A stretch of DNA of 64,000 nt from Spirochaetia bacterium. Lineage in GTDB: Bacteria; Spirochaetota; Spirochaetia; UBA9216. The number at the start of each line of letters is the position of its first letter. Position 1 is the stretch's first letter. Location of the stretch: positions 1,472,001 through 1,536,000 of the forward strand of contig CAXXYH010000003.1 in NCBI GenBank assembly GCA_963677925.2, given 5' to 3'. Under the pieces are notes generated by a model, which worked only from the letters and a program-made list of their open reading frames with translations, did not search any database and was not told the origin of the DNA. This document shows, piece by piece, positions 20,086 through 42,256 of the stretch. The position numbers were made by a program, and so were the translations under genes.

Positions 20086-20100
20086 TTTTCAAGACCTCCA

Positions 20101-23461: not shown

Positions 23462-25387
23462 ATGAATAAGATAGTCATATTTTCAACGACCCCGGGGATG
23501 TCACAAAGTTGTGAATATGTATTGAAGAAGCTGCAGATATCCGGAATACCGGTTTATGAATTAACGACTCACACAGCTCTTGAAAAAGCCAGAGAATGCC
23601 AGAAAAACGGTACCAAAGTTCTTGTATGCCGGGGAGGAACTGCGGCACTGCTTAGAGAAAATCTTGATATGCCGATCATAGATATCAGGCACAGTTTTTT
23701 GAGCTTTTTCCTTGCTGTAAGAAAGACCAGCACAAGTTACAACAAAGTGGCCGCGATAGGTTTTTCACAATTTTGCAATATTGCCAAAAAATTTAATTCC
23801 ATTATGAATGAATCGCTAATGGTATTTCAGGTTGACAATGCAGGAGAGTTTAAAGCTGCTTTTTCAAAAGCCAGGGAAATCGGAGCGGAAGCATTTATCG
23901 GGGGGTTTCAGCTGAGGGCAATCTGTATCAAGAATAACATGCCCTTCTATTCAATTTATCCCGATGAATCGGAAGTTGAGCTGGCAATAGACGAGGCGCT
24001 ATACAGTCTTTATGTCGAAGAGGAAAGAGAAAAGCAGTACAGTTTAATTTCAACAATACTGGACAGTACCTCCGAAGGCATTATTGGTATTGATAACTCG
24101 GGAAAAATACTTAATATCAACAAAATAGCGAAAGCACTGCTGCAGCGTGAGGCTGAAGATGAGAAAACTTATATAGATACTTTGATAAATACAAGCAATA
24201 TACAAAAAACCATTCAGTCAGGAGAACCGGTTTATGATGAGCTTATTACAATCAACAGGCTCTCACTGGTATACAGCTGTCTGCCCATAGTCATAAATAA
24301 TCAGATCAACGGAGCCGTTATCTCGATACAGGAAGAGACTAATATCCAGATAATTGATTCCAAGATCAGAAAAAAGCAGATCGGCAGAGGTCATTACGCA
24401 AAAATAAACTTCTCAAATATAATCGGAGAATCAAAAACAATCCATAAAACCATCGATACAGCCAGGCTGTACGCTAAAACCGAAAGTACAATTCTTCTAA
24501 CAGGCGAAACAGGCACTGGAAAAGAAATGTTTGCCCAGAGCATACACAATGACAGTATAAGAAAGCTTAAACCCTTTATCGCAATCAACTGCGCCGCTCT
24601 CCCAAAAAGTATTCTTGAAAGTGAATTATTCGGATACGCTGAAGGAGCTTTTACCGGAGCTAAAACAGGCGGAAAAGCAGGAGTTTTCGAACAGGCTCAC
24701 AAGGGTACAGTTTTTCTGGATGAAATAACCGAAATCCCGCCGGATGTACAGGCAAAACTGCTTAGAGTTCTTCAGGAAAAAGAGATAACACGAATAGGTG
24801 ACAACAGAATAATCCCTATTGATATAAGAATTATAGCAGCCTGCAATAAAGATCTGTATAAAGAAGTAAAAAACAACAATTTCAGAGAGGATTTATATTA
24901 CAGGATTTGTGTACTCGAGCTGAAGATCCCCCCCTTAAGGGAACGAAAAGAAGACATTCCGGCCCTGTTCAGCCATTATCTTCAAAACTACAATTTTCTC
25001 ACAGAGAAAGCTGAAAAATACATCTCTAACTATTCATGGCCCGGAAACGTACGGCAGCTGAAGAATGTTACCGAAAGAGCAAATGTACTTAATAATAAAA
25101 ATCAGATTGATGAAAAACTTATTTCTGAATTAATTTCTTCAAGAGAAGATATTATCGAACGGCCTCCAAAGTCGAACCAAGGCTCAGACAGCTTTCAAAC
25201 AGACTTTCTAAAATCAATTGCAGCTGCAACGCCTCACACTGAAGGCCTGCTCAAAACGATGGAAAAAAAGCTGATTCTTGAAGTTCTGCAGCAGACAAAG
25301 GGAAACAGGGAAATGGCGGCAGCAATACTTGGAATAAGCATTACGACTTTATGGAGAAAAGAAAAACTTTTTAATTCAGAAAGCTGA
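23462..25387 (+). CDS. Sigma-54-dependent transcriptional activator (PrpR_N + PAS + AAA+ + Fis HTH)
   Basis: CRGGTA in PrpR_N; GETGTGKE; ESELFG; GAFTGA; FLDEI; WPGNVRQL; C-terminal HTH. Confidence 0.95.
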   Translation: MNKIVIFSTTPGMSQSCEYVLKKLQISGIPVYELTTHTALEKARECQKNGTKVLVCRGGTAALLRENLDMPIIDIRHSFLSFFLAVRKTSTSYNKVAAIGFSQFCNIAKKFNSIMNESLMVFQVDNAGEFKAAFSKAREIGAEAFIGGFQLRAICIKNNMPFYSIYPDESEVELAIDEALYSLYVEEEREKQYSLISTILDSTSEGIIGIDNSGKILNINKIAKALLQREAEDEKTYIDTLINTSNIQKTIQSGEPVYDELITINRLSLVYSCLPIVINNQINGAVISIQEETNIQIIDSKIRKKQIGRGHYAKINFSNIIGESKTIHKTIDTARLYAKTESTILLTGETGTGKEMFAQSIHNDSIRKLKPFIAINCAALPKSILESELFGYAEGAFTGAKTGGKAGVFEQAHKGTVFLDEITEIPPDVQAKLLRVLQEKEITRIGDNRIIPIDIRIIAACNKDLYKEVKNNNFREDLYYRICVLELKIPPLRERKEDIPALFSHYLQNYNFLTEKAEKYISNYSWPGNVRQLKNVTERANVLNNKNQIDEKLISELISSREDIIERPPKSNQGSDSFQTDFLKSIAAATPHTEGLLKTMEKKLILEVLQQTKGNREMAAAILGISITTLWRKEKLFNSES

Positions 25388-25398
25388 TATAACCTGAA

Positions 25399-25424
25399 TA
25401 AAAAAAGGCCGGATCATTCCGGCC
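25399..25424 (-). terminator. Intrinsic terminator of the sigma-54 operon
   Basis: GGCCGGA-N4-TCCGGCC followed by a T-run on the minus strand. Confidence 0.75.
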
Positions 25425-25449
25425 CTGTATAATAAGATTACTTATCTTT

Positions 25450-26817
25450 TTAATTATTCCATAGAATATCCTCTGACGGTATTTCAGCATCCTTCATTAA
25501 ATATCCGATTCTTGAAACATTGATCAGATGAGTATATGTCAGGTTCTCGGAAATACTGTTATTTCCCCACGAGCCGCAGCCCAGAGTTGTTGTCGGAGAA
25601 AAACCGTTAAACCAGCTTCCGCCAGCGCTTGTTGACGACGGCTGATTAATTACAAACCTGCTTGCCTTCAGTCTCAGAGCGGCGGCTTCAATATGCTCTT
25701 CACTGTGGCTGTGCAGAGAAACGGAATGGCCGGCCCCCTCATATTCCAGATTTGCTTCAGCAATATCTACTGCTTCATCAAAATTTTTATATGTATATAT
25801 TGAAAGTACCGGACACATTTTTTCCTTGGAAAGAAAATCTTCTCTTCCCGCTCCGGCGGCTCTAAGCAGAATCACTCTGGTATCTTCAGGAATTTCAGAA
25901 CCTGCCAGCTCAGCCACCCTGGCTGTTGACTGCCCCACAAGATCAGGATTCATTTTCCCATTCGGGAAGAGAGCCTTCCGGAATGAGTCAACTTCCTGTT
26001 CATCAAAAACAACATATCCGCTGTTCTTTTTAAACTCTTCCATGACAGCATTAAGATCCTCTTCATGAACAATTACAGTCTGCTCTCCCGAACATATGAT
26101 TCCGTAATCAAAACTTCTGCCGCTGACAATCTTTGGTACCACTTCTCTAAAATCAACACCTCTGTCTATGATGCACTGCACATTTCCCGCACCTACACCA
26201 AGGGCCGGCTTTCCGCTGCTGTATGCAGCCTTGACCATACTCATTCCCCCGGTCGCCACGACAGTATCCGCGGCAGAGATCAGCTCCCGGGTATTTTCCC
26301 TGGACTGATGATCAATAATCTGTACAAGATTTTCAGGAGCACCAATCTTCTGCAGCTCTTCATTTATAAGTCTAACAGTTTCCTCGCTTGTTTTAAAGGA
26401 GCGATGATGGGGAGTGATAACCACTGCGTTTCCGCCTTTCAGAGCAAACATTGCATTACACATCGGTGTAACAACCGGGTTAGTACAGGGTGTAATTGCA
26501 GCAATTACTCCGATGGGTTTTGCGATTTCAGTAATTCCGGTTTGCGCATCCCTTTTGATTATTCCTCTTGATTTTTTTCCTTTGAGACTGTTCCAGATTA
26601 TACCGGCCTTTCCTCTGTTTTTTAGAATTTTATCAGGAACATTTCCCATTTCGGTTTCAGCTACTGCCATCCCGGCAAGATATTCGGCATTGTCGTATAC
26701 CACTTTTGCAATCAGTCTTACTGCCTCATCCACCTGCTCCTGTGACCAGGCCTCAAATTCCTTCTGAGCCTTTCTCGCTCTGTCCATATAACCGGCAATA
26801 TATTCAACTGTGTTCAT
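25450..26817 (-). CDS. CoA-acylating aldehyde dehydrogenase (SucD/succinate-semialdehyde dehydrogenase-like)
   Basis: TPCTNPVVTPMCNAM, ATGG, GVGAGN, catalytic ICSGEQ, EKMCP, TLGCGSWGNNS; resembles clostridial SucD. Confidence 0.88.
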   Translation of the reverse strand: MNTVEYIAGYMDRARKAQKEFEAWSQEQVDEAVRLIAKVVYDNAEYLAGMAVAETEMGNVPDKILKNRGKAGIIWNSLKGKKSRGIIKRDAQTGITEIAKPIGVIAAITPCTNPVVTPMCNAMFALKGGNAVVITPHHRSFKTSEETVRLINEELQKIGAPENLVQIIDHQSRENTRELISAADTVVATGGMSMVKAAYSSGKPALGVGAGNVQCIIDRGVDFREVVPKIVSGRSFDYGIICSGEQTVIVHEEDLNAVMEEFKKNSGYVVFDEQEVDSFRKALFPNGKMNPDLVGQSTARVAELAGSEIPEDTRVILLRAAGAGREDFLSKEKMCPVLSIYTYKNFDEAVDIAEANLEYEGAGHSVSLHSHSEEHIEAAALRLKASRFVINQPSSTSAGGSWFNGFSPTTTLGCGSWGNNSISENLTYTHLINVSRIGYLMKDAEIPSEDILWNN

Positions 26818-26884
26818 ACAATCGCTCCTGTATAAAAATCTCTTAATACTAAATTCAAATTCTCAATATTGTTCTGTTACAAAA

Positions 26885-27745
26885 TCAGCGGAACCTGTTC
26901 ATGATATGCCTGACGGAAACATCCAGCCCTTCGCCCTTCTGCCTTTCAAGAGCCCGTTCCTGAACCTCAACAAGCCGCTCTTCCAAAGTCGGTTTTCTAA
27001 CCTGATAAAATATTCCAGTATAAAGCTTATCCTTCGAAAAAGCATAGGGCATGGCGGTCATTACATCCTGAACAGGAAATCCTTCCGGAAGACTGCAGGT
27101 CTTTTCTTTAAGTTTCTTCCACTCAAGAGAGGGGTGAGTCACACAGGGCGAATGAACATAAATAATCGAAAACCCCGGGTGCTTTATCCCCTCTGTAATC
27201 AGATGTGTAAGCTGCTTAATATCAAAACTGTGACCGCGCGCAATAAATGATGCGCCGTATGTAAGGAAAACCGGTATTGGATTCAGCTCTTCCTCCGTCA
27301 CTCCATAAGGAGAGGTCTTCCCCTGATAACCGACGGGAGTAGTTGGTGAGGTTTGACCCTTGGTGAGTCCGTAAATATGATTATCCAAAAGAAGATAGGT
27401 AATGTTTGCATTCCTTCTTGCAGTATGACTTATATGGCCTCCGCCGATCGACAGTCCGTCTCCATCACCGCCTACCGCAAGCACAGTCATTTCCGGACTG
27501 GCAGCTTTGGCTCCGCATGCTGTAGGCAGGGCCCTGCCGTGAGTACCGTGAAGACTGTAGGTATTAAGGTAATGTGAAAAACGTCCAGAACATCCTATTC
27601 CCGATATCACCATGATTTCTTCGGGCAAAAGCTGCAGCTCAACAAGAGACTTTTTAAGGGCCGTAAGAACGCCGTAATCACCGCAGCCCGGACACCATAC
27701 AGGCTTTACCCCTTCCCTGTTAAAAGAATTTACTGTGTTCATCAT
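26885..27745 (-). CDS. 2-oxoacid:ferredoxin oxidoreductase beta subunit
   Basis: WCPGCG, SGIGCS, TPP-binding GGDGD...DNHIYGLTKGQ. Confidence 0.95.
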   Translation of the reverse strand: MMNTVNSFNREGVKPVWCPGCGDYGVLTALKKSLVELQLLPEEIMVISGIGCSGRFSHYLNTYSLHGTHGRALPTACGAKAASPEMTVLAVGGDGDGLSIGGGHISHTARRNANITYLLLDNHIYGLTKGQTSPTTPVGYQGKTSPYGVTEEELNPIPVFLTYGASFIARGHSFDIKQLTHLITEGIKHPGFSIIYVHSPCVTHPSLEWKKLKEKTCSLPEGFPVQDVMTAMPYAFSKDKLYTGIFYQVRKPTLEERLVEVQERALERQKGEGLDVSVRHIMNRFR

Positions 27746-29558
27746 TGTCCAACCTCGCTACCTTTTCAATTCCTTCATAAATTTCTTCTGCGGTCAGAGG
27801 TATACCCTGACATTTTCGTATATTCTGAGGATTAATCCTGAATTTGGCTTTTAGATAATTTGTAAATTGACCGGTAAGATTCTCTTCCACCACGATAAGA
27901 TGATCAAGCCTGGCCAGGAACAGGGATATCTGCCTGTGAGGAAGCGGACTTATAGTATGCGGATGAAGATGACGGATTTTAATACCGTTTTTTTCAGCCA
28001 TGTATCTGGCTTCACGGATAGCACCCTCGGTAGAACCCCAGCCTATAACCCCGATTGTGGCGTCAGGATCGCCGTAAAACTCTATCGGGTTTTTTTCAAA
28101 CTCTTTTGAGATTGCCTCCATCTTCCTGAATCTCTTAAGGCTCATTTTCTGATGGTTAAGCGGTGATTGATCGGTATGACCGTATTCATCATGCTCCAGA
28201 CCGGTAGCAAGATACTGACCTCCGGGGGTTCCCGGCCTTGCAATCGGACTGACTCCGTCCGGGGTATCAAGATACCTCTTATAATCTTCAAGATCATTCG
28301 AATCGGGCTCCCTTCTTCGCCTGAGATCAATTTTATTCGCATGGGGTATACGCAGACTTTTAAAACACTCCATCTGATCGAGTTCTTTAATCTGATCAAA
28401 ATTAGGCATTTTAACAGTTGCTTTCCGGTATCCTATGGACTGATCAAGAAGCAGAATTACCGGAATCTGGTATCTTTCAGACAGATTAAATGCCCTGATA
28501 GTCTGATAGAAAGTATCTTCCACCGTTGTTGGCGCCATGATAATTCTTGGACTGTCTCCAGCTGCACCGTAAACGGCAAACTTAAGGTCCGACTGTTCAG
28601 TTTTTGTGGGAAGACCTGTAGACGGACCTGCACGCTGTACATCGACAAGAACCATCGGCACTTCGATCATCGAGGCAAGACTCAGCTGCTCCGTCATAAG
28701 CATCAGCCCGGGACCGGAGGTTGGTATAATTACCTTTTCACCGGCGAATGAAGCTCCAATCACAGCACTAATAGCAGCAATCTCATCCTCCATCTGAACA
28801 GCCCTGCCGCCTACAAGCGGCATAAGCCTGGTAAGGGTTTCAAAAATGGATGTAGAAGGAGTTATCGGATAACCGGCTGTGAACCTGCAGCCGGCAGCAA
28901 TAGCACCGAGCGCCACCGCCTGGTTACCGCTTATAAACATATAATCTTCACCGGCAGGTTTCAGGTCTGTAATTCTGAAATTGACGGGAATATCAATTCT
29001 GGCTGCCGCATCCATTCCAGCATGGAGAGCTTTGTTATTCTTTTCTATAACATCAGCACCCTTTTTTCCGAATTTTTCTTTCAGCAAAGCCCGCAGCAGA
29101 TTAGTATCTATTCCCAGTACACTGCCCAGCGTACCAAGAGCAACCACGTTTTTACCAAGAACAGCTCCTGTAGTCTCCCGTGCAAGAGCCGTAAAAGGAA
29201 CGGGTTTGAGCTGACAGTCTTTCATATCACTTACATCAACCGTATCCGGATCATATATCAGAACCCCGCCTTCTCTGAGTGCTGATCGGGTATTTTCAAG
29301 CGCCTCCTGATTAAAGACAACCAGACAATCCACATTGCTTCCCATGGAATATATTGTTATATCCCTCAGCCTTATCTGGATCATGGAAAATCCGCCCCTC
29401 ATTTCTGACGGATAGGTAATGAAAGTAAAAACATGAAATTCCGTACGTGCAGCAGCCTGTGCAAGAAGTTCACCGCAGCTTATAACGCCGTCTCCTCCTT
29501 CTCCACCTATTCTAATGGTGTAGTCCAGAGTTGACACCAGTTTCGGCTTTTTACTCAT
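27720..29558 (-). CDS. 2-oxoacid:ferredoxin oxidoreductase alpha subunit (fused gamma domain)
   Basis: GGEGGDG, YPSEMRGG, GYPITP, EDEIAA, TSGPG, QRAGPSTGLPT motifs. Confidence 0.95.
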   Translation of the reverse strand: MSKKPKLVSTLDYTIRIGGEGGDGVISCGELLAQAAARTEFHVFTFITYPSEMRGGFSMIQIRLRDITIYSMGSNVDCLVVFNQEALENTRSALREGGVLIYDPDTVDVSDMKDCQLKPVPFTALARETTGAVLGKNVVALGTLGSVLGIDTNLLRALLKEKFGKKGADVIEKNNKALHAGMDAAARIDIPVNFRITDLKPAGEDYMFISGNQAVALGAIAAGCRFTAGYPITPSTSIFETLTRLMPLVGGRAVQMEDEIAAISAVIGASFAGEKVIIPTSGPGLMLMTEQLSLASMIEVPMVLVDVQRAGPSTGLPTKTEQSDLKFAVYGAAGDSPRIIMAPTTVEDTFYQTIRAFNLSERYQIPVILLLDQSIGYRKATVKMPNFDQIKELDQMECFKSLRIPHANKIDLRRRREPDSNDLEDYKRYLDTPDGVSPIARPGTPGGQYLATGLEHDEYGHTDQSPLNHQKMSLKRFRKMEAISKEFEKNPIEFYGDPDATIGVIGWGSTEGAIREARYMAEKNGIKIRHLHPHTISPLPHRQISLFLARLDHLIVVEENLTGQFTNYLKAKFRINPQNIRKCQGIPLTAEEIYEGIEKVARLDNDEHSKFF

Positions 29559-29609
29559 GCCGTTCTCCTTATGGTATTCACTGTTAACTATTTATTTGTT
29601 GATTGTTTT

Positions 29610-30746
29610 TTAGAATTCCTGGTCACGATAGACAATTTTTCCATCCTTTATTGTCGCCATGGCTTTTAGAAACGATTTCCCCTTCAGGGTGTTTCCTGTT
29701 CTATCCCCAAAAATGACATCCTTTTTTATATTACGGAAAACCGCTATATCAGCAGCAGCACCTTCTTTCAGCACAGCAGTTACTCCGGCCTTTCCGATTA
29801 TTTTTGCAGGGTTGACCGTACACATATCGAAAACCTGCCTTACAGATAATCCAAGGCTGATATATTTTGACATGACATGCAGAAGATTAAAAACATTCGG
29901 ACGAAGATACAGGCTCCTGGTAGTTAAATCTGTACTGATGGTATCCGGAAGAAATCCCTCTGAAATCGCCTGTCTTGCAACCTCGAATGAGAAATGAATA
30001 TTCGCGTTTGCTACATCAAAGACAACACCACGTTTTCTTGCGGATTTTGCGGATTCAGATATCCGTCCGTCAGGACCGAGAATGCTCCCGCCCTTATCCT
30101 GAAAGGCATGCGTAAAAATATCCCCCTTCCTTAAGAGATTAAGGATATCATCCATTACTCCCGGCGGATTTGAGCAGTGAACCATCACCGGTACATCAAG
30201 TTCTTCCGCAAGCCTGATTGTTTCTTTAAGCGGCTTCAACCCGAGGGAACCAACAATCTCTTTCCCCTGCCTGATTTTAAGCCCTATCAGTTCCCGGTTT
30301 CCCCATTTTTCAAAATATTCTGTAATTTTTTCCCTGTCATAATACTGAGGGTCCGGGTTTTCCAGATAACGGCCTGTAGCAAGCCCTGCAGAACAGACAT
30401 GCATAAAGGTAAAAACGTTAAGAGAGCTGGCTGCTATTGCCGGTCTGTGCCCGGCATAGGTTCCGGCCCCGGCACTGCCGCAGTCCACAACTGTTGTTAC
30501 TCCCGAAGGAAAGCATGCAGCCTCTCCGCAGACTCCGATTTCAGCAAGCGGAGCCAGATGTAAATGAAAATCCACAAGGCCCGGGCTGACAATACAATCT
30601 GAAGCATCTATTACATGTTTTGATTCAGATGCTGAGATTTTTCCAATTCTGACAATCTTATTCCCTGCGATCCCTATATCGTTGTTTTCGGGCGTCTCTT
30701 GTCCGGATAACAGCAGATTTCCGTTTTTGATAAGTAAGTCAAACAT
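29610..30746 (-). CDS. Amidohydrolase-superfamily metallo-hydrolase (dihydroorotase/deacetylase-like, COG3964 type)
   Basis: DFHLH, GLKIR (carbamylated Lys position), MVH, FTH, STD metal ligands. Confidence 0.88.
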   Translation of the reverse strand: MFDLLIKNGNLLLSGQETPENNDIGIAGNKIVRIGKISASESKHVIDASDCIVSPGLVDFHLHLAPLAEIGVCGEAACFPSGVTTVVDCGSAGAGTYAGHRPAIAASSLNVFTFMHVCSAGLATGRYLENPDPQYYDREKITEYFEKWGNRELIGLKIRQGKEIVGSLGLKPLKETIRLAEELDVPVMVHCSNPPGVMDDILNLLRKGDIFTHAFQDKGGSILGPDGRISESAKSARKRGVVFDVANANIHFSFEVARQAISEGFLPDTISTDLTTRSLYLRPNVFNLLHVMSKYISLGLSVRQVFDMCTVNPAKIIGKAGVTAVLKEGAAADIAVFRNIKKDVIFGDRTGNTLKGKSFLKAMATIKDGKIVYRDQEF

Positions 30747-30766
30747 AGTTTTTCCAGTAATTTAAA

Positions 30767-31582
30767 TCAGCAGCAGTTCTCTTCAAACTGCTTCATCTTG
30801 GATGAAAGCATTCTGCGCCAGGCATCTGTATCAATAAACTTTTCACTGCCTCTGGAAGTATCATAGCCAAGGCCCAGAAAATCATAATCTACAGCATGTC
30901 CGACATGAGAAGGCAGAACAATATCTACATGCTTCTCCATCATTTCTTCAAGCTGCCTTCTGTAATCATCATGAAGAGACACAGGCAGCCGGTTTTCAAT
31001 CAATTCAGGCTTGCTCACTCCATGAATGCCCAGCCCGCCATGCATTGCGCAAGTAAGATTCTTACCTTCATTCTGGGTCTCAATAAAAAAGCTGGTTGTA
31101 CCCGGAGTATGGCCCGGACAGTGAACAGGCTTTATAACTGTACCGCCGAAATTAATTTCTGAATCATAATCATATGTATTGGTAATTTTAAATTCAGGAA
31201 CAGTGTGTTCAAAAAATATCAGATCACGGCGTTCTTCAAAAAAGAACAGATCATCTTTTCCTATCCATATCTCGCATCCAGTCATTTCCTGAATTGCACG
31301 GGCAGCACCGCAGTGATCGAAATGTCCATGTGATATAAATAGTTTTTTTATATCACGCGGATTGAAGCCCGCCTGGTGTATACCGTCAACAAGCTGGTAG
31401 AGTGTCTCCTGCATTGCACAGTCGATCAGAATCAAGCCTTCTTCTGTTTCAATAAGAAAGCATGATACCCAGGAAGTTCCAACAAAATATATATTGCCTA
31501 CTACATGGAAGGGTTTTGTCATGATAATCCATGGTTCTGCAAGACGCTTATTGGTCAGTTCTGTAATTTCTGTGATATCCAT
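30767..31582 (-). CDS. MBL-fold hydrolase, subclass-B3-like
   Basis: PFHVVGNIYFVGT, SHGHFDH, PGHTPG, PSH motifs. Start reassigned to ATG 31582. Confidence 0.85.
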   Translation of the reverse strand: MDITEITELTNKRLAEPWIIMTKPFHVVGNIYFVGTSWVSCFLIETEEGLILIDCAMQETLYQLVDGIHQAGFNPRDIKKLFISHGHFDHCGAARAIQEMTGCEIWIGKDDLFFFEERRDLIFFEHTVPEFKITNTYDYDSEINFGGTVIKPVHCPGHTPGTTSFFIETQNEGKNLTCAMHGGLGIHGVSKPELIENRLPVSLHDDYRRQLEEMMEKHVDIVLPSHVGHAVDYDFLGLGYDTSRGSEKFIDTDAWRRMLSSKMKQFEENCC

Positions 31583-31584
31583 AA

Positions 31585-33093
31585 TCATTCTCCAGCAGCA
31601 GCTGCTGCACGCTTCTCTGCACGACCTGCCCTTATTTGAGAAACAAATGCAAATACTATGATAAGAAGGCACAAAGAAAGCAATGTTACACATAAGGGTC
31701 GGGTCAGAAAAGGCATAATAGATCCCCGGCTGTGCTGAACTGCACGCCGCAGATTAGTCTCAACTGACGGCCCCAGTACAAAGCCCAGTACCAAGGGGGC
31801 TCTCGGAATACCAATCTTAAATAAAAGAAACCCGAATACACCGAATATCAGCAATGTCCATACATCAAACATATTATTGTTGTTTGCATATGAACCGACA
31901 ATGCAGAGCACCAGTATAATCGGAAGAAGTATGCCTTTTGGAACATTCAGCGCCTTTACGAACAGCCGCAAGCCGAAATATTCTATGAAAAACATAATAA
32001 TTGTACAGATTATCAAAGCTACAAAGATTGTATTTACCAGAGGTGCGCTTGTCTTGAACAGCAGCGGTCCCGGGACAATTCCGTGAATCATAAATGCACC
32101 GAGCAGCATCGCTGTCGGCCCATCACCCGGAATACCAAGAGTAAGCAGGGGAATCATTGCGCCTCCTATGGAAGCGTTATTTGAAGTCTCCGATGCAACT
32201 ATACCATCCATTATGCCCGTTCCGAATTTCTCAGGGTACTTGGAGTTTTTCTGCACTGCAGCATAGGCTACCTGGTTCGCCAGAGAACCGCCCATACCGG
32301 GCAGAAATCCGATTACAATTCCAATAACCGAAGATATCACAAAGTTCTTTGCCTGACCGAAAAACTCCCGTATTGAGAATCCGAAACCTCTGACCTTTTC
32401 GGTTTTAGTCTTTACATCCGCTTTCTTATCAGCGTTGCTGACGGCCTTCATTATCTCAGTTACGGCAAATAATCCTATGACTGCCGGTAAAAGGGAAAAA
32501 CCGTTAAGCAGCTGTACTTCACCGAAGGTGAATCTGGGTGTTCCATCGATAGGAGCAATACCGACCATCGCGATGGCAAGCCCCATGAATCCGGACAGCA
32601 GACCAAGCAGCATATTCTTACCGGAGACTCCTGAAATCAATGTAAGCGACAGCAGGGTCAGCGCAAAGAAATCATAGGAACTCATCTTAATTGTCAGCTT
32701 TGAAAGCGGAGGCGCAGCGGCAATAAGAACGATAAGGCTCACGATAGTACCGAGCGTTGAGAAAACTATACCTATTCCGAGAGCTCTGTGAGCCTGACCT
32801 TTTACAGCCATCGGCGAACCGTCATACGTGGTTGCTATCGACATTGCCGAACCGGGAATATTGATAAGTATAGCTGAAATCAATCCGCCGGAAACACCGC
32901 CGATGTACAGGGCAATAAGCAGAGCAAAGGCGCTGGTCACATCAATCGCAAAGGTGACGGGCAGGAACAGCGCGATTGCCATGGTTGAACTTAATCCTGG
33001 AATAGCGCCAAAGAGAATACCGACGATCACACCTACCACCATCAGGGTAATATTTAACGGTGTCATTAAACCTATAAAAGTTGAAACTAACAT
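31585..33093 (-). CDS. tctA: Tripartite tricarboxylate transporter large permease
   Basis: GAIPGLS, INIPG, GFLPGMG, ETSNNA, TLGIPG motifs. Confidence 0.95.
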   Translation of the reverse strand: MLVSTFIGLMTPLNITLMVVGVIVGILFGAIPGLSSTMAIALFLPVTFAIDVTSAFALLIALYIGGVSGGLISAILINIPGSAMSIATTYDGSPMAVKGQAHRALGIGIVFSTLGTIVSLIVLIAAAPPLSKLTIKMSSYDFFALTLLSLTLISGVSGKNMLLGLLSGFMGLAIAMVGIAPIDGTPRFTFGEVQLLNGFSLLPAVIGLFAVTEIMKAVSNADKKADVKTKTEKVRGFGFSIREFFGQAKNFVISSVIGIVIGFLPGMGGSLANQVAYAAVQKNSKYPEKFGTGIMDGIVASETSNNASIGGAMIPLLTLGIPGDGPTAMLLGAFMIHGIVPGPLLFKTSAPLVNTIFVALIICTIIMFFIEYFGLRLFVKALNVPKGILLPIILVLCIVGSYANNNNMFDVWTLLIFGVFGFLLFKIGIPRAPLVLGFVLGPSVETNLRRAVQHSRGSIMPFLTRPLCVTLLSLCLLIIVFAFVSQIRAGRAEKRAAAAAGE

Positions 33094-33094
33094 A

Positions 33095-33646
33095 TTATCT
33101 CCCCAGGACTGCTTTAAATAATGCCCCGATTGGCAGGTTTACATATATGAATTCTTTGAAACAAAAATAAACCACAACTGCAACTATTACTGCAATTATT
33201 GCATACATTTTCACATTTCTCGAAGCCTTCGAATTCATAATGATCATATTGGAGATCAAATAAATTATCGAAGACAGAATAAAGCCGATTTGCGTCATGA
33301 GCAGTATAAATAACAATATACTGCCCAGAACAATCAGGGATTTTTGATTACCCGCAACTGTCTCTTTTGCTACTGCGCTGTTAAGTATCTCTTTTCGCAA
33401 GGCTTTATTCCTTAGCAATTCCTGTATAAAAATCAGGATTCCAAGAATTAACAGAACAGTGTAGATCAGACGCGGGGCAAATGCAGCATTGTCTACAACA
33501 TTCAGTCCTCCGGCTTGAACATAATCTGAAGTCTGGATAAGCATAAAAATGGAAACCAGAGCAATTATCAACCCGAGAGCCATCAGTTTGTAAGCGGAAA
33601 AATAAATCTCCGCCCTATAAAAAACACTGTCAATTTTACTTTTCAT
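33095..33646 (-). CDS. tctB: Tripartite tricarboxylate transporter small permease
   Basis: Several TM segments, C-terminal VNLPIG, located between tctC and tctA. Confidence 0.85.
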   Translation of the reverse strand: MKSKIDSVFYRAEIYFSAYKLMALGLIIALVSIFMLIQTSDYVQAGGLNVVDNAAFAPRLIYTVLLILGILIFIQELLRNKALRKEILNSAVAKETVAGNQKSLIVLGSILLFILLMTQIGFILSSIIYLISNMIIMNSKASRNVKMYAIIAVIVAVVVYFCFKEFIYVNLPIGALFKAVLGR

Positions 33647-33666
33647 ACCAAAAATCCCTTAATTCT

Positions 33667-34656
33667 CTATTTTAAAAACTTCTGGAAAACTTCGGCCGAA
33701 TGATCAAGCACGTCTGTAAGTTCTTTCGGAGAGTAATTAACGTCAACCATGCCAAATCGGGCCATTTCTTTCTTATAGTCGGGATTTGTCTGAATCTTCT
33801 CATGAAACAGCTTGTTGAATTTTTCAAGTACGGCAGGATCAGTTCCCTTCGGAGCAAGTAAATATATACCCTGGTCTACAAATGCGAAATCATAGCCGCT
33901 TTCCTTGAAGGTCGGAACATCCGGGAGAAAGGGATTTCTTTCTTCAGCGGTAATTGCAAGATAACGGAAGTCTCCTGACTGAAGATAACCGGTGATTGCA
34001 GCCATACCGGAAATGATAAAATCAACCTGTCCGCCGAGGAGGGCAACAGAGCGTTCTGAAGTATTTCCGGCGTCGATACAGTACATATCGATTCCGAGAG
34101 CATCTTCAATTGCCAGCATACAGAGATAAGGATAACCGGTCATTGAAATACCGCCGGTAACACTGTCAGGATTTTTTTCAATTGCGTCAAATAAATCCTT
34201 TAGAGTTTTGTAGGGGGAATCTCCACGGACAAGAATTCCGTTTGAAGAATCCAGCCCCGGGGTAAAGGCTGCATCAAATGCTTCATGACCGAAATCAAGC
34301 TGGCCCTGAGCCGCAGATATCAGGAGCCCTGTGATGCCGAATACATAGTTGTATCCGTTAGGATCCTGCTTTCGAACCTGCTCATAACCTGAAAGACCTG
34401 TAACATTGGTTACAACTACTGCTTCGCCTGTTTCCTGGGTTATGTACTTGGTAATTATTCTTGTAATGATGTCGGCTCCGCCTCCTGCTGAAGCAGGTAC
34501 AAGAATGTTAATAGGCTGTTCAGGCCAGTTTTCTGCAGCACTAACTGCTTTTTCAGTTACGGCTTCTGCAGAAGACTTTTCCGACTTCGCAGAACAGCTT
34601 ACCATCAGGGCGACACTTACTGTAAGAATCAGCAAAAATGATAATATCCTTTTCAT
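33667..34656 (-). CDS. tctC: Tripartite tricarboxylate transporter substrate-binding lipoprotein (Bug/TctC)
   Basis: Lipobox MVSC; WPEQPINILVPASAGGGADI; DVPTFKESG; APKGT. Confidence 0.92.
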   Translation of the reverse strand: MKRILSFLLILTVSVALMVSCSAKSEKSSAEAVTEKAVSAAENWPEQPINILVPASAGGGADIITRIITKYITQETGEAVVVTNVTGLSGYEQVRKQDPNGYNYVFGITGLLISAAQGQLDFGHEAFDAAFTPGLDSSNGILVRGDSPYKTLKDLFDAIEKNPDSVTGGISMTGYPYLCMLAIEDALGIDMYCIDAGNTSERSVALLGGQVDFIISGMAAITGYLQSGDFRYLAITAEERNPFLPDVPTFKESGYDFAFVDQGIYLLAPKGTDPAVLEKFNKLFHEKIQTNPDYKKEMARFGMVDVNYSPKELTDVLDHSAEVFQKFLK

Positions 34657-34700
34657 TAAAAACCTCCATAGTTTTTATTTTAATTTTTATTTTAATACAT

Positions 34701-35402
34701 TCACGGATGATAGACCTCGTCTATCAGTTCAAAACCTTTTTCATCAAGCAGCTTTCCAACCCATTCTCTGTTTGCGGTTCCATCTTTGGCTGCAGCCAGT
34801 TTCTTCTCGTCCTGAATCTGGAAAGCTTTTGCCTTCTCCAGGGTAACTTCTGCATCCTTTTTTGGAATCACAATTACTCCGTCAGGATCAGTCAGAATAA
34901 TATCTCCGGGATTCACACTGATTTCTCCGCATGATATAGGGACATTTATCTCACCCGGACCCTCTTTATATGGCCCTCCCGGAGTAGTTCCTGTAGCGTA
35001 AATTGGAAAATCCCAGCTGTTAACTTCATCGATATCCCGTATCGGTCCGTCCAGTATAATACCGGCAATTTTCTTTGTATAAAAGAGATAAGCAAGCATT
35101 ACCTCACCAATAAGTGAACGGGTCTGATCACCTTCATTTGAAATGACAAGCATATCACCTTCACTTACAAGATTCAGTGCTGCATGAATGAGAAGATTGT
35201 CTCCGGCCCTTGCCTTGACGGTGAATGCAGGACCTGCAGTGCATTGTCTGGACGGACTGCTCATCAGCCGGATGCGGGGATTCATGGCACAGGATCTTTC
35301 CATAACATCCGCACAATTTGAAGCAGGGATGCTGTTAAACTGTTTCACCAATTCCGGATCAGGAAGATCCCTTTTAAGATAAATTCTTTTACCAACCGGC
35401 AT
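34701..35402 (-). CDS. RraA-family protein (HMG/CHA-type class II pyruvate aldolase or oxaloacetate decarboxylase candidate)
   Basis: GPAFTV, GDNL, GEVM, DGPIRD, GDIILTDPDGV motifs. Confidence 0.88.
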   Translation of the reverse strand: MPVGKRIYLKRDLPDPELVKQFNSIPASNCADVMERSCAMNPRIRLMSSPSRQCTAGPAFTVKARAGDNLLIHAALNLVSEGDMLVISNEGDQTRSLIGEVMLAYLFYTKKIAGIILDGPIRDIDEVNSWDFPIYATGTTPGGPYKEGPGEINVPISCGEISVNPGDIILTDPDGVIVIPKKDAEVTLEKAKAFQIQDEKKLAAAKDGTANREWVGKLLDEKGFELIDEVYHP

Positions 35403-35416
35403 AAGCTCTCCTTTTA

Positions 35417-36292
35417 TTACTGGTTTTTTCTCATGGAAACTAGAACTGAATGAATATCTTCATACTCATCTTTAGCCTGTTCTCCTGAAAGACATTCGGC
35501 AAGATATTCATGTTTATATTTTGACGCTTTTACCATTGCATTATCTACATCCCGATCCATCAGCATCTGAACAGAACCGTTTAATTCTTCGGCTCTTCTT
35601 TTTGCATGAACAGCTGTGCCGGTAATAAGTCTTTTTAAATGGCTTTCAAATGATATACCATCCATAGAAGCACTGAGAGAGGAAACAACTTCATCCATCA
35701 CATTATATTTATAAGCACCTTCAAGCATTTCAAGCATGAGTGCAGCTATACCTTTCATAAAAACACTGCGTATCAGCTTTATTGCCGAGGCTGATCCAGC
35801 CTGAGAACCGACACAGGTGATATTCATACCCTTTTTGGACATTGTTTCCTTGAATTTTTCAGCACCCGATCCGCTGGCTGTTATGGGAACCTTATGCCTG
35901 TTTAAAGGAAGAGAACCAAGCATAGCAGCATCTACATATAGTGCACCCGATTTCTCAACCATCTTTTCAAATGATTCTTTAACTTTGGGTGTCGAAGCAC
36001 TTACATCAATATACAGCTGACCCGGTTTTAGAAATGGAGTGATTTCATTGCATACATCCTGAGCATTCACAGCCGGTACTGCAACAAAAAGGAAATCGGT
36101 TGTATCTACCGTATCAGCCGGAGAAACAAGCAGTTTGACGCGGCTGTCCTGTGCTCTTTGCTTAATCTTCTTTCCGGCAACAGGATGCTCCAGCATTGCA
36201 TCATAAGCAACAATTCCGGATACGCCTTCATCCTTCAAACCCATAGAAATATAATATGCTGCTTCACCAAAGCCTATAAACCCAACATTCAC
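35417..36292 (-). CDS. NAD(P)-dependent beta-hydroxyacid dehydrogenase-family protein (DUF1932-type C-terminus)
   Basis: GFGEAA, ASAIKLIRSVFMKG, HAKRRAEE motifs; GTG start after AAGG. Confidence 0.82.
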   Translation of the reverse strand: MNVGFIGFGEAAYYISMGLKDEGVSGIVAYDAMLEHPVAGKKIKQRAQDSRVKLLVSPADTVDTTDFLFVAVPAVNAQDVCNEITPFLKPGQLYIDVSASTPKVKESFEKMVEKSGALYVDAAMLGSLPLNRHKVPITASGSGAEKFKETMSKKGMNITCVGSQAGSASAIKLIRSVFMKGIAALMLEMLEGAYKYNVMDEVVSSLSASMDGISFESHLKRLITGTAVHAKRRAEELNGSVQMLMDRDVDNAMVKASKYKHEYLAECLSGEQAKDEYEDIHSVLVSMRKNQ

Positions 36293-36340
36293 TGTATAGC
36301 ACCTTCCATAGATAAACTGTCAAATTAGTATTGGGCTTAT

Positions 36341-36356
36341 TGCAAATACCGTGCCA
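36341..36356 (-). promoter_or_regulatory. Sigma-54 (-24/-12) promoter
   Basis: TGGCACG-GTAT-TTGCA, a full consensus match 49 nt upstream of the operon's first codon. Confidence 0.88.
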
Positions 36357-36487
36357 GTAACAATCAGGAATTTTCATGTGCTTTTATTTTATTGCTGTAT
36401 GGTGATTTATACTCTTTCAGTTATTCCAGGAGAAAAGTTTGATACAATATTTTAACAATCTATTTTTCAATTTACATTATATTTTGT

Positions 36488-36502
36488 ATTTCATAATGAA
36501 AT
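36488..36502. promoter_or_regulatory. Candidate enhancer (UAS) for the sigma-54 activator
   Basis: Palindrome ATTTCAT-a-ATGAAAT about 130 bp upstream of -24, in AT-rich DNA. Confidence 0.5.
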
Positions 36503-36521: not shown

Positions 36522-36551
36522 AAAAAAAAGGGACTTCCCGACGGAAGTCCC
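36522..36551 (-). terminator. Intrinsic terminator of the porin gene
   Basis: GGGACTTCC-N4-GGAAGTCCC followed by T8 on the minus strand. Confidence 0.9.
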
Positions 36552-36575
36552 CGCAAATCATTCTGAATGAATCGT

Positions 36576-37589
36576 TTAGTAGTCTATGTCAAAGAAGAGG
36601 TACGCACCGTTACCGGCAACTGTGCCGTTATCACCGTAAACGATAGTTGAAACATCATCACCGCTGGCCACAACAAAACCGGCACCAATACCAAGTGCAC
36701 CAAGGTTATACTTGCCGCCAAGATCTACTGACTGGAAAACAGAATCTGCTGTTGTATCAAGATCAACAATTGCATAGAGGTCTGTATTTTCAACCATTGA
36801 AGTGCTTACTTCAATAAGACAATCTTTGAAGGCAGAAGTAGCACTGGTTCCGCCTACACCTACGCTTGCATGAATTCCGGCAACATCAGCAGCAACTCCG
36901 GAACTCCAGCCGTATGCTTCTGTTCCAAGTCCATATGTAAAAACCGCAGGTACATATACTGAAACAGCATCAGAATCATAAGTATAACCGGCTTCCGCCC
37001 ATACATTACCTTCTGAAACAGAATCATATGCCGCATAGTAGCCGACCAGGAAGTTAGAACCTTCAACCGGTGAACCGGAGAAAGCAAGTCCCATCATTGT
37101 AAGGTCGAGATCCTGGTAAAATTTCACACTGTAACCGGCAACCCCAAAATCAAGTGCTACAGCTTCATCTTTTTTAGGTCCGAAGTTGAAGAGGTATGCT
37201 GAAGCTGCTCCGGTATAGTAAAATTCTTCACCGCTTCTTGAAACATAATTCCAGTTTGTGAAATATGTATCGAAGTAACCTGCAGTCATTGTGAGACTGA
37301 AAGCTTCAATTCCGAATACACCGGCGATATTGGAGCTTACCCTGAAATCATCAAGTGAAATGTTTCCATCAGTCCAGTCACCACCCTCTGCATCGAGTTC
37401 TACGGCTACTGTAGTGTTATCATCAACAGTTGCGCTGAGGTTTATTTCCGCCTTGGGAGTCTGAGAGGTCTGAGCATCAGCACCAAGGTTAGTTAAACCG
37501 AACATGAACTCTCCGCTGAGGTCAACATCAGCGAAAGCCCCCGCACTGACAACCAGAATCAATGCAAGTAAAATAGACAGTTTTTTCAT
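36576..37589 (-). CDS. Probable outer-membrane beta-barrel/porin
   Basis: SPase I leader ending AFA; alternating amphipathic strands; C-terminal AYLFFDIDY. Start reassigned to 37589. Confidence 0.75.
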   Translation of the reverse strand: MKKLSILLALILVVSAGAFADVDLSGEFMFGLTNLGADAQTSQTPKAEINLSATVDDNTTVAVELDAEGGDWTDGNISLDDFRVSSNIAGVFGIEAFSLTMTAGYFDTYFTNWNYVSRSGEEFYYTGAASAYLFNFGPKKDEAVALDFGVAGYSVKFYQDLDLTMMGLAFSGSPVEGSNFLVGYYAAYDSVSEGNVWAEAGYTYDSDAVSVYVPAVFTYGLGTEAYGWSSGVAADVAGIHASVGVGGTSATSAFKDCLIEVSTSMVENTDLYAIVDLDTTADSVFQSVDLGGKYNLGALGIGAGFVVASGDDVSTIVYGDNGTVAGNGAYLFFDIDY

Positions 37590-37712
37590 TCTTTCTGTTC
37601 TCCTTGAAAATTTATTCCTGTACATGATCTGGTCTTTATGTGTGAAGTATATGGAGGATATGTGGATCGTTATTGAAGATTTGGTGTTTACAGGATGAAG
37701 AACAATCCTGAA

Positions 37713-38417
37713 TCAATCAGTCGATGGAGTGCCGCAAAAACGGTAACCGTAACCTCTGACAGTTTCTATCCACTCACCCTTTCCAAGCTTTGCCCGTATA
37801 TTCTTAATATGGGTATCAACAATCCGGTCATAACCTTCAAAGTTATATTCAAGTGAATGATCCAGAATCTGCTCCCTTGAAACTACAACATGCTCATTCG
37901 AAACAAGATATGTCAGGATTTTCCATTCGGTAGCCGTCATTCGTGTATTCTCATTATCGACAAAAAGTTCATGCCCGGGAAAATCAATTTCTATCCGGTA
38001 GTTATTCAGCCTCCACTTTCGGCTCAACGAACCTGCTCCGGCAGAAACGAGCTTCCTGTTTGCACGCCGAAGCAGGGCATTAATTCTCAGCATCAGTTCT
38101 TTTATCGAAAACGGCTTCTCAACAAAGTCATCACCGCCTATTTCAAAACCCATAATCCGGTCTGATTCTGTATTTTTTGATGTCATAAAAATAATGGGAA
38201 CATCAGACGCCTTCCGAATCTCTTTACCCAGGTAAAATCCGTTGCCGTCAGGAAGAACGACATCAAGCAGCAGTAAGTCGACATCATTTGAGTTAAGATG
38301 TTCAAGAACTCCGGTGCAGCCGGGAAATTCAACTGTGGAGTAGTCTTCAAGATTCAGATAGGATACAACCGCCTCGCGGATAGCCTCATTATCTTCAACA
38401 ATAGCAATAGTATACAT
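37713..38417 (-). CDS. OmpR-family response regulator
   Basis: IVED, LLDVVLP, DDFVEKPF, IVDTHIKNIR, ETVRGYGY motifs. Confidence 0.95.
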   Translation of the reverse strand: MYTIAIVEDNEAIREAVVSYLNLEDYSTVEFPGCTGVLEHLNSNDVDLLLLDVVLPDGNGFYLGKEIRKASDVPIIFMTSKNTESDRIMGFEIGGDDFVEKPFSIKELMLRINALLRRANRKLVSAGAGSLSRKWRLNNYRIEIDFPGHELFVDNENTRMTATEWKILTYLVSNEHVVVSREQILDHSLEYNFEGYDRIVDTHIKNIRAKLGKGEWIETVRGYGYRFCGTPSTD

Positions 38418-38461
38418 TTTCACTCTCCGATAGTTTTCTTAAATATACTTCGACTTCATAG

Positions 38462-38481
38462 ACCATCAGTTAACTGATGGT
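38462..38481. promoter_or_regulatory. Perfect 20-bp palindrome in the divergent RR/HK promoter region
   Basis: ACCATCAGTTAACTGATGGT. Confidence 0.55.
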
Positions 38482-38612
38482 AAATTGAATGTAAACAATG
38501 TAATAATCAAAGCGTCTAATGTCCTGTTTTTGTTGATATTGTGTTTTTTATGTGTATTATCAATTTTTCAGACAGATGCAGTTTGAACAACATGAAGATA
38601 TGGAATATAAAA

Positions 38613-42246: not shown

Positions 42247-42256
42247 ACTAATCTCC

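Follow-up and report, generated by a model that had tools for sequence, protein, structure and literature searches.

The question raised by positions 23462-36502 of the DNA analysed here is which compound is degraded by the ten same-direction genes found there, and to which product. The DNA is a stretch of 64 kb (the window) from contig CAXXYH010000003.1 of a Spirochaetia bacterium, and the region was studied with a list of its open reading frames (ORFs) together with Pfam and NCBIfam profile scans. An original prediction, made from the sequence alone, had described the genes as a self-contained pathway for a carboxylate. Comparison with related loci shows that the spirochaete operon is the most elaborate form of a tidy and widespread orphan module, and is less singular than that prediction held. 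The conserved unit is an RraA-like lyase together with a dehydrogenase and a carboxylate transporter, usually accompanied by a metal hydrolase. All of the families involved are known, and so is the general scheme by which a compound is taken up, unmasked, oxidised and cleaved at a carbon-carbon bond; their combination is one without an assigned substrate. With modest confidence we read the ten genes as an operon that an anaerobic spirochaete induces for catabolism, centred on this widespread four-part module. The spirochaete operon is also the most informative version of the module, since the genes it has in addition give a hint of the product.

The conserved core and its exchangeable partners

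Of 2915 candidates, 2563 are related to the RraA-like protein at E <= 0.001, and the best 120 listed are 73-97% identical to it. A pattern scan covering one genome per species returned 223 stretches, of which 196 encode a relative, many of them from Oscillospiraceae and Lachnospiraceae that are common in the gut. We took the best 80 for study as loci of 20 kb, and neighbours were counted by blastp within 7 kb of the RraA gene; at least 5 kb is available on both sides of that gene in only 51 of the 80.

A dehydrogenase is found near RraA in 72 of the 80 loci. It is a D-2-hydroxyacid dehydrogenase (2HADH) alone in 46, a DUF1932 protein alone in 24 and both in two, leaving eight where none was seen, at least two of which (L007 and L008) carry dehydrogenase fragments. 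The two types are non-homologous, and the DUF1932 type adjoins RraA in 26 of the loci. Ldh_2 proteins, of the L-2-hydroxyacid dehydrogenase family, occur in five. A hydrolase is present in 48 loci (cog3964-like in 34, DUF6282 in 18, both in four), and a metallo-beta-lactamase-fold (MBL) protein in seven. The transporters comprise TctA (35), CitMHS (22), GltS (6), DcuC (4) and DctM (4), and 56 loci carry a LysR regulator. The subset of 51 loci with at least 5 kb on both sides contains LysR in 41, 2HADH in 32, DUF1932 in 15, cog3964-like hydrolase in 25, DUF6282 in 12, TctA in 25 and CitMHS in 15. The core of what had been predicted as a self-contained pathway thus recurs in at least 72 of the 80 loci. 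The original prediction had also singled out the DUF1932 dehydrogenase, RraA and the COG3964 hydrolase as a trio; the RraA core does recur, while the other two members are found in only 26 and 34 loci respectively and their places can be taken by other families.

Most core-bearing loci belong to Bacillota and Synergistota and are LysR-controlled. The culturable bacteria that carry the core include Oscillibacter valericigenes Sjm18-20, Flintibacter muris DSM 110149, Anoxynatronum buryatiense Su22 and Clostridium symbiosum ATCC 14940. Among the loci examined, sigma-54 control and the pair of oxidoreductase and aldehyde dehydrogenase are confined to the spirochaete lineage. The nearest public locus, L001, is from a Spirochaetia metagenome-assembled genome (MAG) and encodes all ten operon proteins at 89-98% identity and in the same order, with a partial convergent activator gene at the end. 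It is the only one of the 80 loci with the oxidoreductase, and the only one with a SucD-like gene within the operon. A second Spirochaetia MAG locus, L002, encodes an RraA protein of 83% identity in the order dehydrogenase, RraA, TctCBA and amidohydrolase, followed by the activator; its MBL protein is a different one (28% identity) and it lacks both the oxidoreductase and the aldehyde dehydrogenase. PrpR-type regulators were seen in L002 and, in partial form, in L001, and in no others of the 80. The order TctA-MBL-amidohydrolase occurs also in L001, L033, L034 and L046.

When 81 RraA sequences are placed in a tree, those of the three spirochaetes group together with good support (SH-aLRT 99) among those of Bacillota and Synergistota. 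The dehydrogenase type changes 14 times across this tree, although well-supported branches require only two or three of these changes, and for the hydrolase type there are 29 changes. RraA itself remains 70-77% identical despite these changes of partner. The lyase thus appears to be the constant element of the module, around which the partners are swapped freely.

A Pfam and NCBIfam scan of 112 flanking ORFs found no further conserved enzyme, the genes there being otherwise unrelated housekeeping genes. Since the flanks are of this kind, the module seems to be self-complete and must hand over central metabolites.

Some of the related loci have other neighbours of interest. In L002 a CitX-CitG fusion gene lies upstream of the operon and a LysR gene with an aconitase-family gene downstream (7300-8712 -, 18201-19868 -, 19367-20695 +). 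L033 carries CitC and CitXG beside RraA (75-2445, +), and L073 has the same aconitase-family cluster after DUF6282 (13368-14693, +). In L012, L017, L035 and L038 a second LysR-controlled cluster adjoins the RraA module (for example at 3030-4058 of L012), and contains an HMGL-like or 4-hydroxy-2-oxovalerate-aldolase-like gene, a 2-hydroxyacid dehydrogenase, an HD-domain protein and TctC/TctA.

Layout and control of the spirochaete operon

The ten genes occupy 25450-36292 of the minus strand, between two strong terminators (Table 1), and are separated by distances of -26 to +67 nt. Between the terminators there is one weak 5-bp hairpin and nothing stronger. Internal sigma-70-like promoters are not above chance, with 32 matches against 27.5 +/- 4.8 in shuffled sequences. 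The ten genes had been predicted to form one unit, ended by a terminator that faces a PrpR-like activator, and the terminators at both ends, the small gaps and the want of internal promoters above chance bear this out; Pfam and NCBIfam likewise confirmed every gene family that had been named. The downstream terminator also ends the convergent activator gene, while the upstream one belongs to the preceding gene and insulates the operon promoter.

Table 1. Features of the operon and its control region, in order along the transcript and with the convergent activator last. Positions are those of the window; scores are in bits.
Feature	Position	Strand	Evidence
Upstream gene's terminator	36529-36552	-	10-bp stem, 6 GC pairs, T run
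Candidate activator-binding site (upstream activating sequence, UAS), palindrome TTTCATTATGAAA	36489-36501	-	read from sequence; ~135 nt upstream of -24 element
Sigma-54 (-24/-12) promoter TGGCACGGTATTTGCA	36341-36356	-	exact TGGCAC-N5-TTGCW match
DUF1932/NAD_binding_2 dehydrogenase (beta-hydroxyacid dehydrogenase fold)	35417-36292	-	PF09130 44.9, PF03446 36.4
RraA-fold class II (metal, pyruvate-enolate) lyase	34701-35402	-	PF03737 139.8 (cut-off 24.5)
TctC solute-binding lipoprotein, tripartite tricarboxylate transporter (TTT)	33667-34656	-	PF03401 109.4
TctB small membrane subunit	33095-33646	-	PF07331 62.6
TctA large membrane subunit	31585-33093	-	PF01970 474.6
B3-like MBL-fold hydrolase	30767-31588 (ORF to 31693)	-	PF00753 85.4
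cog3964-like (DHO-like) binuclear amidohydrolase	29610-30746	-	PRK12394 394.8 (cut-off 442)
2-oxoacid:ferredoxin oxidoreductase alpha (fused gamma-alpha, KorA type)	27720-29558	-	TIGR03710 634.7 (cut-off 482.75)
2-oxoacid:ferredoxin oxidoreductase beta (thiamine pyrophosphate, Fe-S, KorB type)	26885-27745	-	TIGR02177 269.8 (cut-off 261.9)
SucD-like CoA-acylating aldehyde dehydrogenase	25450-26817	-	PDB 8CEI 538.2, E 1.6e-160, residues 9-453
Operon-end intrinsic terminator	25405-25426	-	9-bp stem, 6 GC pairs, T run
Sigma-54 enhancer-binding protein	23462-25387	+	PrpR_N PF06506 94.1, Sigma54_activat PF00158 229.7, HTH_8 PF02954 41.6; weak PAS

Promoters of the sigma-54 type are recognised by their -24/-12 consensus. 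The sequence TGGCAC-N5-TTGCW has a single exact match in the 64 kb, where 0.08 would be expected, and eight of 100 shuffled sequences had at least one. With one mismatch allowed there are four matches in the window against an expectation of 2.43, so the position of the promoter weighs more than its existence. The 3' end of TGGCACGGTATTTGCA lies 48 nt ahead of the GTG start of the first gene, and the element is identical in L001, where the relative is 97% identical. In L002 (83%) the sequence TGGCATGCATATTGCT (TGGCAT-N5-TTGCT) is found about 55 nt ahead of the first gene of the orthologous operon. The case for the promoter rests on this spacing and on its conservation in both loci, and agrees with the perfect -24/-12 element that had been predicted at this place.

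The activator site that had been proposed upstream stands as a candidate. The palindrome is present, and words resembling TTTCA-N3-TG(A/T)A(A/T) occur at the corresponding place in L001 and L002, the conservation being approximate. The activator itself has the expected motifs, namely the Walker A sequence GETGTGK (residue 348) and GAFTGA (residue 395). It falls below the cut-offs of both the PrdR and the PrpR equivalog models (333.9 against 499.2 bits for PrpR). Its orthologue in L002 is 65% identical and is located inside the operon, in the same orientation. Taken together, these features indicate a compact transcription unit that has a sigma-54 promoter and an activator that looks cognate to it.

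Proposed chemistry and its alternatives

The lyase scores just below the cut-off of the uncharacterised subfamily model PRK06201 over its full length (225.1 bits against 231, residues 4-221), and remains under those of the LigK-type equivalogs (NF006731, 125.9 against 179 bits; TIGR02798, 112.9 against 304.5). Its nearest characterised relative in a PDB sequence search is the HMG/CHA aldolase 3NOJ (89.6 bits). Residues R122/D123, N69, H73 and K146 align to Arg-123/Asp-124, Asn-71, His-75 and Lys-147 of 3NOJ, and R122 and D123 are invariant in 14 homologues. Glu-199 of 3NOJ, the second metal ligand, aligns to Q197, with the invariant D198 one residue off. According to PMC5065237, Arg-123 in HMG/CHA aldolase is essential, Asp-124 and Glu-199 are metal ligands, and the enzyme decarboxylates oxaloacetate through the same enolate. 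By analogy the RraA-like protein may be either an aldolase or a beta-decarboxylase, since both chemistries are open to the RraA fold. Of the original proposal, an RraA-fold carbon-carbon lyase with the catalytic Arg/Asp pair is supported; aldol cleavage is only one of two possible chemistries. Beta-decarboxylation is favoured because the dehydrogenase families are interchangeable, and we lean slightly towards a decarboxylase rather than an aldolase.

NCBIfam has no model above cut-off for the DUF1932 dehydrogenase, its best PDB relatives (3QSG, 4EZB and 1I36) are all uncharacterised, and a search of the ESM Atlas returned generic oxidoreductase clusters only. TctC, TctB and TctA are encoded together and each exceeds its Pfam cut-off; the complete set supports the predicted TTT uptake of a carboxylate. 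TctC has a lipoprotein-like signal at its N-terminus (MKRILSFLLILTVSVALMVSC). Its matches among PDB sequences are generic TTT binding proteins, the best being BugD at 112.6 bits, and gave no ligand clue.

Two metal hydrolases follow the transporter genes. The ORF of the MBL protein overlaps TctA by 109 nt; because its homologues are about 275 amino acids long and Met36 overlaps the TctA stop codon, the gene probably begins at Met36 and the protein is probably cytoplasmic. Read from Met36 (MIMDITEITE...) it has no hydrophobic leader or signal peptide, as judged by eye. The zinc motif HGHFDH (HxHxDH) is present, followed by HCPGH and SHVGH, and AiiA-type lactonases are among the more distant PDB matches. 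A beta-lactamase, suggested by the B3 models that are its best named matches, is very improbable given a score of 161.5 bits against the NF033105 cut-off of 240, the missing signal peptide and the translational coupling to TctA, and the same holds for the lyase as the RNase E regulator to which RraA owes its name, since those equivalogs are not reached (NF006875, 81.5 against 136 bits; TIGR02998, 48.7 against 241.25), the catalytic Arg/Asp pair is kept and the context is catabolic. Elsewhere in the window, at 17095-17931 (-), a second MBL-fold protein of 278 amino acids, unrelated to that of the operon, is encoded between a gene for a xylose-isomerase-like TIM-barrel protein and a sugar ABC transporter.

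The amidohydrolase falls short of the NCBIfam cut-offs (PRK09237, 319 against 371 bits; TIGR03583, 226.8 against 432.15; PRK12394 in Table 1). Its matches in the PDB sequence search are 8JE0 (257 bits), 2OGJ (166.9) and 2ICS (122.2), and its predicted structure (pLDDT 93.9) superposes on the same three with TM scores of 0.94 (at 37% identity), 0.90 and 0.89. The title of 8JE0 is 'A novel amidohydrolase', and the fold search gave no further functional clue. The predicted metal ligands H61, H63, K157, H190, H213 and D273 (HxH/K/H/H/D) are invariant in 31 amidohydrolase sequences. In other loci, for example L003, L005 (10204-11052), L014, L015 and L023, the hydrolase slot is occupied by the Pfam family DUF6282, with the invariant residues D-x-H-x-H, His, His and Asp. 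The predicted structure of DUF6282 (pLDDT 94.6) is an amidohydrolase-superfamily barrel whose best fold matches are phosphotriesterase-like lactonases (E about 1e-7, TM 0.54-0.66). This superfamily membership is shown by the fold search alone, the profile-profile alignment with the cog3964-like family being weak (probability 13.4%, E 0.0021). DUF6282 is usually paired with CitMHS, and the cog3964-like enzyme with TctCBA. Because all three families found in the hydrolase slot have relatives that are lactonases or esterases, what is imported is probably a lactone or acyl conjugate in need of opening. The families of the proteins and the retained Arg/Asp pair support the predicted order of two metal hydrolases followed by a dehydrogenase and an RraA-type lyase.

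The genes at the end of the operon bear on the product. The beta subunit of the oxidoreductase has the expected CPGCGD and GIGCSG cysteines. The best PDB match of the alpha subunit is 6N2N (430.4 bits), which we take to be the 2-oxoglutarate enzyme of Magnetococcus; entries for the broad-range Sulfolobus enzymes score about half as much, near 218 bits. The literature confirms only that a KorAB enzyme of this kind exists. The 2-oxoglutarate equivalogs stay below cut-off for the oxidoreductase (NF007206, 267.2 against 579 bits). The closest structure to the aldehyde dehydrogenase, 8CEI, is named 'succinate-semialdehyde dehydrogenase (acetylating)'. All of its NCBIfam scores are below cut-off (AdhE-N 461, SauS 430.6 and EutE 406.4 bits), and no SucD model is among the NCBIfam matches. 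Its Cys242 lies within GIICSGEQ, presumably the catalytic-cysteine motif. Because KorAB and SucD share succinyl-CoA, the two enzymes would probably act in series.

From these family assignments a pathway can be proposed, in which every chemical step is drawn by analogy. TctCBA would import a masked di- or tricarboxylate, for example a lactone or an O-acyl or N-acyl conjugate. The B3-like MBL and the cog3964-like amidohydrolase would then release a hydroxy-polycarboxylate with a malate-type core, for which our leading guess is an isocitrate-like acid. The DUF1932 dehydrogenase would oxidise the hydroxyl group to give an acid that is both 2-oxo and 3-oxo, and the RraA-like enzyme would break the bond at C3 by way of a metal-bound pyruvate-type enolate, preferably by beta-decarboxylation or alternatively by aldol cleavage. 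In the former case the dehydrogenase and the lyase would be a two-protein substitute for dehydrogenases of the isocitrate/isopropylmalate type. In this lineage only, the probable product 2-oxoglutarate would be converted to succinyl-CoA and reduced ferredoxin by KorAB, and SucD would then reduce succinyl-CoA to succinate semialdehyde. A malate-type core, with a hydroxyl group alpha to one carboxylate and beta to another, is proposed because it suits beta-, D-2- and L-2-hydroxyacid (Ldh_2) dehydrogenases alike; its oxidation would give an oxaloacetate-type acid, of a kind that RraA-fold enzymes can decarboxylate. The TctCBA and CitMHS transporters, the PrpR_N sensor and the citrate-lyase and aconitase neighbours of some loci point, if thinly, to an acid resembling citrate or isocitrate. 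If the substrate were isocitrate-like the product would be 2-oxoglutarate, which would explain the addition of KorAB and SucD in this lineage. The general scheme of uptake, unmasking, oxidation and RraA-type cleavage we regard as probable. The formation of 2-oxoglutarate, with KorAB and SucD in series, is put forward more tentatively, at slightly less than even confidence, and an isocitrate-like substrate in particular is rather doubtful.

Several points weigh against this proposal. The RraA-like protein is below all NCBIfam equivalogs, and its closest characterised relative is an aldolase and not a dedicated decarboxylase. Two-subunit oxidoreductases include broad-range enzymes that also take pyruvate, such as the Sulfolobus entries above, and the PDB name of 6N2N, which we take for a 2-oxoglutarate enzyme, is generic. 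If the series stops at succinate semialdehyde it consumes NAD(P)H without a gain of ATP, an odd outcome for a catabolic operon unless the route is continued by other genes. Neighbours related to citrate lyase or aconitase occur in only three of the 80 loci (L002, L033 and L073), and plain isocitrate would not need the module, because most organisms already have isocitrate dehydrogenase. The absences counted among the loci are also partly due to contig ends, since only 51 of the 80 loci extend at least 5 kb on both sides.

The original prediction ended in parallel, with a 2-oxoacid and an aldehyde each converted to an acyl-CoA. In a version of this scheme a true aldolase would cleave a 4-hydroxy-2-oxo dicarboxylate, for example 4-hydroxy-2-oxoheptanedioate, to pyruvate and succinate semialdehyde, from which the oxidoreductase would make acetyl-CoA and SucD succinyl-CoA, both thioesters then yielding ATP. 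The kinship of the lyase with 3NOJ is in keeping with this scheme, as are the broad range of some two-subunit oxidoreductases, with Sulfolobus-type entries among the matches, and the possibility that the SucD-like enzyme (8CEI, 538 bits) works oxidatively; two acyl-CoA products would also give a fermenter a sensible energy yield, with more ATP than the series. However, the oxidoreductase matches 6N2N at 430 bits, roughly double its score with archaeal enzymes of broad range (about 218), and a fermenting spirochaete normally owns a pyruvate oxidoreductase already. Furthermore, the oxidoreductase and SucD are absent from the sister species L002 and the other 78 loci, where the aldehyde would have no dedicated outlet, and a beta-hydroxyacid-type dehydrogenase would be poorly suited to giving a 2,4-dihydroxy acid its 2-oxo group. 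A parallel ending is not the reading of greatest economy, a series fits at least as well, and we consider the parallel scheme unlikely.

A route from sugar acids, in which lactonases open an aldarate or uronate lactone and an RraA-like enzyme acts on 2-keto-3-deoxy-hexarate to give 2-oxoglutarate semialdehyde, then 2-oxoglutarate for KorAB, is distinctly improbable. It would account for the lactonase-like folds of the hydrolase slot, and sugar and sugar-acid clusters are abundant in the window. There is also a precedent in FlDet of Flavobacterium sp. UMI-01, described in PMC8563752 as an RraA-family 2-keto-3-deoxy-glucarate dehydratase/decarboxylase in a sequence of dehydrogenase, RraA-like enzyme and aldehyde dehydrogenase leading to 2-oxoglutarate. 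However, the module showed no gene for a dehydratase or cycloisomerase able to supply a 2-keto-3-deoxy acid, its aldehyde dehydrogenase belongs to the CoA-acylating class and not to the 2-oxoglutarate-semialdehyde dehydrogenases, and the transporters are those of tricarboxylates and citrate. FlDet is only 20% identical to the HMG/CHA aldolase according to PMC8563752, whereas the RraA-like protein aligns well with that aldolase.

It is similarly improbable that korAB-sucD is a separate 2-oxoglutarate/succinyl-CoA unit, inserted downstream on the same transcript and silent on the product of the module. The two largest gaps of the operon (51 and 67 nt) do border these genes, which are missing from L002 and the other loci. 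Against this, the amidohydrolase gene and korA are separated neither by a terminator nor by a promoter above chance level, a strong terminator comes only downstream of sucD, and the arrangement is kept in L001 with ten proteins of 89-98% identity.

Returning to the decarboxylating pathway with KorAB and SucD in series, a bolder extension may be offered, although we think it unlikely to hold in full. The dehydrogenase and RraA-like pair could be a two-protein, non-homologous replacement for the beta-decarboxylating dehydrogenases, and the heart of an undescribed pathway widespread in the gut. Swappable hydrolases of lactonase or esterase type, together with swappable transporters, would funnel masked hydroxy-polycarboxylates of plants or microbes (such as isocitrate- or hydroxycitrate-like lactones and acyl conjugates) to 2-oxoglutarate or pyruvate, and the spirochaete would add a sigma-54 switch and a KorAB-SucD exit.

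Relation to known systems and neighbouring genes

The operon can be compared with a number of described systems. The isocitrate, isopropylmalate, D-malate and tartrate dehydrogenases carry out the overall reaction proposed here, in which a malate-type hydroxyacid is converted to an oxaloacetate-type acid and on to a 2-oxoacid and CO2. The comparison is functional only, as there is no homology and two proteins of other folds would split the job. LigI and LigJ, which act upstream in the lower pathway of protocatechuate 4,5-cleavage and gallate degradation, are members of the amidohydrolase superfamily, so that this pathway resembles the operon in that respect and, if the operon too acts on a tricarboxylate, in its substrate. 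Its HMG/CHA aldolase (LigK/GalC) has the RraA fold, the catalytic Arg-Asp pair and the divalent-metal pyruvate-enolate mechanism, as set out in PMC5065237. The operon differs in that its lyase matches at about 90 bits only and lies below both LigK equivalogs, its hydrolases are DHO-like (PF01979/PF07969) and unlike LigI and LigJ in type, ring-cleavage genes are missing, the host is anaerobic and the partner is an NAD(P) dehydrogenase. The FlDet pathway is similar in placing an RraA-family enzyme after a dehydrogenase on the way to 2-oxoglutarate; unlike the operon, it is aerobic, begins with alginate and uses a non-acylating semialdehyde dehydrogenase, the comparison with the operon being one of descriptions.

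The closest structural relatives of the last genes, 6N2N and 8CEI, together with the shared succinyl-CoA, recall a route through KorAB and SucD. A SucD succinyl-CoA reductase is part of the succinate/4-hydroxybutyrate route of the Clostridium kluyveri type. Here the KorAB and SucD genes stand at the end of a carboxylate-uptake operon without genes for a 4-hydroxybutyrate dehydrogenase, a CoA-transferase or a dehydratase. The cog3964 'deacetylases' Atu3266, Oant_2987 and EF_0837 share their fold (TM 0.89-0.90 to 2OGJ and 2ICS) and binuclear-metal ligand set with the amidohydrolase, which is 28-31% identical to them and below the family cut-offs. The cog3964 enzymes are said, in work by Ornelas and co-workers from 2013, to hydrolyse esters of the acetyl-(R)-mandelate type.

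The control region resembles that of PrpR and prpBCDE in its PrpR_N sensor, its AAA+ domain with GAFTGA, HTH_8 and a -24/-12 promoter. In PrpR the PrpR_N domain senses 2-methylcitrate; the activator here does not reach the PrpR equivalog, and there are no methylcitrate-cycle genes. Citrate fermentation units, made up of a citrate transporter, citrate lyase and oxaloacetate decarboxylase, resemble the module in that CitMHS or TTT transporters stand beside an enzyme that could decarboxylate oxaloacetate, and citrate-lyase accessory genes stand by the module in L002 and L033. In contrast, the window lacks citrate lyase genes, and the dehydrogenase that is constant in the module is not needed in citrate fermentation.

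No description of the module was found in the open-access literature of PubMed Central and bioRxiv, subscription papers being outside that scope, and within it the pathway can still be called undescribed, as originally proposed. Knowledge of the substrate would put an annotation on thousands of genes that at present go by 'RraA family protein', 'dihydroorotase' or 'DUF', and would reveal a role for RraA-fold enzymes in anaerobes. It would also name a nutrient, probably derived from the diet or from microbes, that is contested among the gut bacteria carrying these genes.

Immediately upstream of the operon, at 36576-37625 (-), lies a gene for a protein of 349 amino acids that has its own terminator and is outside the operon transcript. 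It has no Pfam or NCBIfam match, and in the ESM Atlas its features score 0.96-0.97 against clusters of spirochaete proteins named 'major outer membrane protein/porin'. L001 retains a homologue's 3' end at the same position. The protein may be an outer-membrane porin and perhaps an entry route for the substrate of the operon. Between this gene and that of an alpha/beta hydrolase (40020-40979) are an OmpR-type response regulator (37713-38423, -) and a histidine kinase (38541-40031, +). L001 differs in the stretch corresponding to 37713-40031, where blastp gave a 69%-identical piece of the kinase and no regulator.

Other gene clusters lie elsewhere in the window. A candidate unit at 56182-62923 (-) encodes a class-III aminotransferase, an arginase-family hydrolase, a DUF3237 protein, an MFS_2 transporter, a large Amidohydro_3 protein and a LuxR-type regulator; speculatively, if it yielded 4-aminobutyrate, it would also make succinate semialdehyde. 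A sugar-acid-looking cluster at 1541-9536 (-) comprises Lar_N (lactate-racemase-like), 6-phosphogluconate dehydrogenase, a PfkB kinase, a 7-bladed lactonase, a 3-hydroxyacyl-CoA dehydrogenase-like protein and two zinc alcohol dehydrogenases, after which come GntR and an ABC transporter. At 41209-48315 (-) two adjacent genes of the URO-D family (345 and 388 amino acids) stand with a sugar-type ABC transporter (binding protein, two permeases and ATPase) and a LacI gene nearby, an unusual pairing.

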